64,000 nt of DNA from Escherichia coli (lineage in GTDB: Bacteria; Pseudomonadota; Gammaproteobacteria; Enterobacterales; Enterobacteriaceae). The notes under the pieces are model-generated. The model was not told where the DNA came from. It worked only from the letters and a program-made list of their open reading frames with translations, and did not search any database. Numbering within the stretch: the stretch's first letter is position 1; each line of letters opens with the position of its first letter. The DNA is taken from NCBI RefSeq assembly GCF_003334305.1, contig NZ_QOWS01000005.1; one strand, written 5' to 3'. Shown here piece after piece: positions 1 to 271 of the stretch. The translations under genes were made by a program, and so were the position numbers.

Positions 1-180
1 GTTCGATGCGTCACGGCATAATCCGGTAGCGGCGTAAAAATCGCGGAAGGGATGAAAAAAACAGCGCCTGACGGCGCAGTGTCTGGCATGCCTGCAATCC
101 GGGAAACCGGACCAGGAAAAAACTTGCAGGCCATAACAGTATCTACCAATAAACTGCAATACATTGAATTTATACGACTT

Positions 181-216
181 TGTAGGCCGGATAAGGCGTT
201 CACGCCGCATCCGGCA
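181..216. repeat. REP (repetitive extragenic palindromic) element downstream of katE
   Basis: Sequence tgtaggccggataaggcgttcacgccgcatccggca matches the canonical E. coli REP motif (GCCGGATAAGGCGT...GCATCCGGC) in imperfect palindromic form. Confidence 0.6.
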
Positions 217-244
217 TAAACAAAGCGCACTATGTAAATCATTT

Positions 245-269
245 GAGGCGGCGCAATTGCGCCGCCTCC
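245..269 (-). terminator. Putative stem-loop immediately 3' of katE
   Basis: Perfect inverted repeat gaggcggcgc-aatt-gcgccgcctc just beyond the katE stop; the trailing U-run on the minus strand is weak. Confidence 0.35.
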
Positions 270-271
270 CA

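Follow-up and report, generated by a model that had tools for sequence, protein, structure and literature searches.

IS621 right end at the edge of the window

The first 271 bases of the window (the whole 64-kb stretch of Escherichia coli DNA that was analyzed) almost certainly represent the right junction of an IS621 copy that is inserted in the chbG-katE spacer, which carries REPs. This segment lies downstream of katE, a gene on the minus strand whose stop codon occupies positions 272-274, and was found to be 100% identical to the corresponding part of E. coli CFSAN029787. In that genome, the gene order is chbR, celF, chbG, IS621 transposase, katE, cedA, and ydjO, and the spacer itself reads chbG, REPs, IS621, linker, REP, hairpin, and katE. 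The limits of the element were set by comparing the occupied site with IS-free genomes, among them K-12 (257-bp spacer from katE to chbG) and E2863, the spacers of these two being without the element. The limits enclose 1279 bp (positions 2866-4144 of the CFSAN029787 locus), of which the window holds the right part. The same length was reportedly given for IS621 by Choi and coworkers in 2003. When 5426 complete E. coli genomes were searched, the feature annotated under the match in all 30 genomes listed was an "IS110-like element IS621 family transposase." The insertion is already known as an ordinary arrangement, and RefSeq annotates this copy in related genomes. The features of the junction are collected in Table 1.

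Table 1. Features at the IS621-katE junction (positions are those of the window)
Feature	Position	Strand	Basis
IS621 (IS110 family) right part, last 144 bp (element positions 1136-1279)	1-144	+	100% identity; RefSeq transposase annotation
IS621 recombinase gene, 3' end: 11 codons (FDASRHNPVAA) plus TAA	2-37	+	Frame-2 translation; CDS end in CFSAN029787
IS621 non-coding right end (RE), 105 bp	38-142	+	Lies between recombinase stop and CT core; predicted fold -37.1 kcal/mol, z = -3.3
Putative terminator-like site in RE: GCGCC-GTCA-GGCGC (77-64), T7 run (63-57)	57-77	-	Consensus scan
TTGCAG, -35-like hexamer	124-129	+	Reconstructed circle junction
Left donor arm ACAGTAT (136-142) plus CT core (143-144), crossover site	136-144	+	8-mer ACAGTATC repeated at left-end 137-144
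AT-rich linker between two REPs, 28% G+C	145-180		Alignment to empty sites
REP element (Y-type palindromic unit)	182-216	-	34/35 matches to consensus TGCCGGATGCGGCGTAAACGCCTTATCCGGCCTAC; fold -21.8 kcal/mol, z = -4.2
GC-rich hairpin, 10-bp stem and 4-nt loop	245-268		Fold ~-23 kcal/mol, z = -2.8 to -3.8
katE (catalase HPII), 753 aa	272-2533	-	ORF; annotation in CFSAN029787 and K-12

Plus-strand reading frames 1 and 3 are closed by stop codons at 19-21 and 27-29, respectively, and frame 2 is open until the TAA at 35-37. The recombinase CDS (WP_000399648.1) spans positions 3057-4037 of the CFSAN029787 locus, its end falling on window position 37. An earlier, sequence-only reading of this DNA had stated that all three plus-strand frames hit stops within 30 nt, which is true of frames 1 and 3 but not of frame 2. 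It had also concluded that no gene 3' end enters the window. This conclusion was overturned, since the last 11 recombinase codons are present, and the longer CFSAN029787 contig, identical over 1-271, has a conserved ORF that runs across the window start. The description of the segment as non-coding holds for 38-271 but fails for 2-37, and bases 38-144 belong to the right end of a mobile element and not to host spacer. That the whole of 1-271 might still be non-coding host spacer, with a REP and a hairpin but no gene end, would agree with the fact that both structures are real and that frames 1 and 3 stop within 30 nt. The probability of this explanation is nonetheless negligible, as the open stretch of frame 2 extends to position 37 and matches the annotated recombinase C terminus, and neither K-12 nor any other empty site has bases 1-144, which are identical to IS621 copies elsewhere. 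A stop codon less than 40 bases from the start of a window therefore does not exclude a gene end there, and what looks like "spacer" at the edge of a window can turn out to be a mobile element's tail.

The full-length CFSAN029787 recombinase (326 aa) scored 254.5 bits against NF033542 ("IS110 family RNA-guided transposase"; cutoff, 140). Its assignment to the IS110-type recombinases (RuvC-like DEDD domain plus Tnp domain) was made on this full-length gene, with which the 11 codons in the window are identical. Terminal inverted repeats are absent: one end and the reverse complement of the other matched at 8 of 30 positions, which is at chance level. IS1397 and ISKpn1 encode a DDE transposase, are bounded by inverted repeats, and produce a longer target duplication. 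These IS3 family elements likewise insert in REP palindromes of enterobacterial spacers (PMC1525189), but differ in family and chemistry from the present element, whose protein is an IS110-type recombinase. In comparison with IS621 as described (Choi, Ohta and Ohtsubo 2003; Durrant et al. 2024; Hiraizumi et al. 2024), we noted no substantial difference: the 1279-bp length, the 326-aa recombinase, the missing terminal inverted repeats, the CT core at both ends, the ATCAGGCCTAC target in a REP, and the arm-matching segments in the left end are all the same, and here one chromosomal copy resides in the chbG-katE spacer. No further IS621 copy was found in the 64-kb window. Among the bridge-RNA recombinases, IS621 is the founding member, with a well-documented preference for REPs; outside of correct annotation, the importance of the present copy is small.

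Target site and predicted signals of the element

Joining the two flanks of the element yielded GCCTGATGCGCTTCGCTTATCAGGC-CT-ACCAAT, also written GCTTATCAGGC-CT-ACCAAT, which places the insertion point inside a REP containing ATCAGGCCTAC. The element is located in this partner REP, left of the window, at ATCAGGC-CT-AC. ATCAGGCCTAC was reported by Durrant et al. (2024) as the "naturally observed target sequence" of IS621, which departs from the ATCGGGCCTAC that the bridge RNA specifies by one mismatch, tolerated, at position 4 (PMC11208160). The element's left end (191 nt), which lies outside the window and was taken from CFSAN029787, contains ATCGGGCCT and then ACAGTATC in the expected order. 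In the published scheme, ATCGGGCCT matches the target arm with the known tolerated position-4 mismatch, and ACAGTATC matches the donor arm (PMC11208160). The placement of the second copy of ACAGTATC, at 137-144 of the left-end non-coding region, fits that of a donor-binding guide (PMC11208160). CT is the core dinucleotide at the ends of the element (PMC11208158), and here it was present at both junctions (left, ...ATCAGGC-CT-TGTATT...; right, ...ACAGTAT-CT-ACCAAT...), with a single CT in empty sites.

Following the published mechanism, the bridge RNA would be made from the left end of an excised IS621 circle. One of its loops would pair with ATCAGGCCTAC in the REP and the other with the joined element ends, ACAGTAT-CT-TGTAT; strand exchange by the recombinase at the CT core would then give rise to a CT on either side of the inserted element. 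Hiraizumi et al. (2024) described that top strands are cut after the core T and bottom strands four bases upstream, with a Holliday junction intermediate (PMC11208158). The present IS621 copy may be, or may once have been, active.

Two elements of the right end may be involved in transcription. The terminator-like site at 57-77 (5-bp GC stem and 4-nt loop; fold of -12.2 kcal/mol, z = -3.1) is oriented against transcription coming from the katE side and antisense to the recombinase gene, and could function as a terminator at this place. In the excised circle, TTGCAG would precede by 17 nt a TATTAT with which the left end of the IS starts, and the two are candidate promoter hexamers of that circle. 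A promoter reconstituted across the RE-LE core of the circle was reported by Durrant et al. 2024 (PMC11208160). An outward hybrid promoter made of TTGCAG and host sequence was considered and discarded: the hexamers CCAATA and CAATAA, located 17 to 18 nt downstream, match TATAAT at 1 to 2 of 6 positions. The scan of window 1-994 revealed no promoter-like site, and in the Rfam library searched, the non-coding ends of IS621 had no match with an E value of 1 or lower. Also rejected as a gene was a plus-strand ORF at 52-219 (55 aa), which spans both the element/host boundary at 144/145 and the REP.

The remaining host spacer and its linker

Bases 145-271 are host spacer and comprise the AT-rich linker, one REP, and the GC-rich hairpin by the katE stop. 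The canonical REP and the hairpin had both been recognized from the sequence beforehand, and both were confirmed. The REP, on the minus strand, combines its consensus match with a stable stem-loop and a position flanked by the end of IS621 and the katE stop; within it, the near-target ATCCGGCCTAC is unoccupied here. Three nucleotides separate the hairpin from the katE stop codon. As an intrinsic terminator it was rejected, there being no T-run on either strand and no corresponding hit in the terminator scan. Counting of REP copies, which had also been proposed, gave one full REP in the 64-kb window, in which a pattern search and BLAST with three REP consensus sequences found no second; the partner REP lies to the left, past the insertion.

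With the element removed, the chbG stop is followed by a degenerate REP and a GC hairpin, then by the REP into which IS621 had inserted, the AT-rich linker of 36 bp, the inverted REP seen in the window, a second GC hairpin, and the katE stop. Of this mosaic element with two REPs, bases 145-216 are the half that remains. BIME-1 (RIP) elements consist of two inverted REPs around a linker that binds IHF, and the arrangement of REP pair and linker at chbG-katE may be one of them. The layout after removal of IS621, with a REP, a 36-bp AT-rich linker containing an IHF-like site, and an inverted REP, is that of BIME-1/RIP (RIB). In contrast to such an element, however, the left REP here is split by IS621, and only one REP and the linker fall within the window; furthermore, the IHF site is a predicted one, and the linker is the fdhE-yiiF variant and not the K-12 katE variant. 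The IHF-like site, ATTCAATGTATTG at 157-169 on the minus strand, has 1 mismatch to WATCAANNNNTTR and is the sole such site in the 1.1-kb locus, but with 0.74 sites expected by chance it is not significant alone.

The GC hairpin copies that flank the REP pair are 90% identical and were located at 493-512 and 668-687 of the O111 E2863 locus (the latter corresponding to window 246-265). A third, degenerate REP is present beside chbG. Genomes with a 46-bp spacer are without the REPs and the paired hairpins, and have an unrelated hairpin.

Two Rfam matches suggested that 138-273 might hold a small RNA gene like naRNA4 (CssrE) or ES036 (CssrF): naRNA4 (RF02564) at 185-273 with 39.7 bits and ES036 (RF02751) at 138-181 on the minus strand with 22.3 bits. 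Such a gene is very unlikely, as both scores are below the respective gathering scores (59.5 for naRNA4 and 37.6 for ES036). Moreover, it is the REP stem that accounts for the naRNA4 alignment, and the ES036 match crosses the element/host boundary at 144/145 and thus does not represent one conserved gene. Similarity to the REP and linker explains these subthreshold matches.

Compared with the katE linker of K-12, the linker at 145-180 has 12 differences in 36 positions, and it is identical to the linker of the K-12 fdhE-yiiF REP pair. In 212 genomes (e.g., strain HS), IS621 was found in that fdhE-yiiF REP pair. Because the linker matches fdhE-yiiF and not K-12 katE, the IS621 copy may have reached this site, or been remodeled here, by homologous recombination between REP pairs and not by simple insertion. 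The linker patch, as far as can be judged from the sequence, suggests gene conversion between two IS621 copies that reached into the shared REP.

Distribution and IS-free alleles

To be matched by a query of window 1-400, a genome needs both the element end and the katE end, and 230 of the 5426 complete E. coli genomes carried this junction. The 1801-bp chbG-IS621-katE stretch was at least 80% covered in up to 276 genomes. A larger count of occupied sites (1255 of 5426, with at least 80% of window 1-271 covered) was rejected as inflated, because the flank up to about window position 235 is also present beside IS621 copies in other REP pairs. The reconstructed IS-free spacer of 521 bp was at least 80% covered in 1931 genomes, among them K-12 with its REP-bearing 257-bp spacer, B strains, and the footprint alleles described below. 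Other genomes have a 46-bp spacer and no REP, and in still others similarity to the window starts only at ~276-282; most genomes with neither the junction nor the IS-free spacer are without the REP block.

Since the window begins inside the element and shows nothing left of position 1, it could be asked whether it holds a solitary right-end remnant, with IS621 truncated or interrupted just to the left in the source genome. This is highly improbable: the transposase gene is full length in CFSAN029787, the transposase is annotated under the match in all 30 genomes listed, and the number of genomes with the 1801-bp stretch is comparable to that with the junction. The element is probably complete in the source genome. 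Past the element, ~130 bp of spacer remainder with other REPs is followed by chbG, celF, and chbR, arranged as in K-12. The expectation of strain-variable content to the left, made in the sequence-only reading, held insofar as the site is variable and REPs draw insertion sequences, but the variable part is only a 1279-bp insertion sequence and not the edge of a larger island. Nor does the variation begin beyond the window, as the last 144 bp of the insertion are window 1-144 itself. The site is variable, yet synteny on either side is that of K-12.

Two IS-free alleles differed from the clean target, ATCAG-GC-CT-ACC. The first, ATCAG-GAT-CT-ACC, was represented by CAG-GAT-CT-ACC in 49 genomes, which were O111 where the name gives the serotype (e.g., E2863, at 560-580 of its locus). 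The second, ATCAG-TAT-CT-ACC, was represented by CAG-TAT-CT-ACC in roughly 50-90 genomes, O26 among them (e.g., RM10386, whose site corresponds to window 137-150). Both alleles are one base longer than the clean site and have kept the last bases of the IS621 right end; the O26 allele matches the window from position 137 onward. O26:H11 strain 11368 still has the element. Because of the retained right-end bases, and since 11368 is still occupied, the O26 and O111 alleles look like footprints of imprecise IS621 loss. A clean empty site with this linker was absent from the 5426 genomes (best match, 99.6%).

A deletion from the target-arm CAG to the one at 137-139 would produce the O26 allele. The footprint junction lies at most 1 nt from the bottom-strand cleavage (between positions 5 and 6) in cryo-EM structures (PMC11208158), and it is conceivable, though doubtful, that the footprints are natural by-products of recombinase-driven excision. 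If so, loss of IS621 would not always be scarless. A same-length product with AT in place of GC, ATCAGATCTACC, as expected from a bottom-strand-cut model, was not found in the 5426 genomes, and a plain deletion between the two CAG triplets is an alternative origin of the footprints. The occupied, footprint, empty, and REP-less alleles together document, on a small scale, how this element has been gained and lost in nature at one site.

Further into the window, two ORFs (3256-3624 and 3634-4071) make up a split ydjO, which is annotated as a frameshifted pseudogene in CFSAN029787. Over 4271 bases, the window and CFSAN029787 showed 111 differences, which were clustered from ~3197 onward, with only 6 located before 3197.
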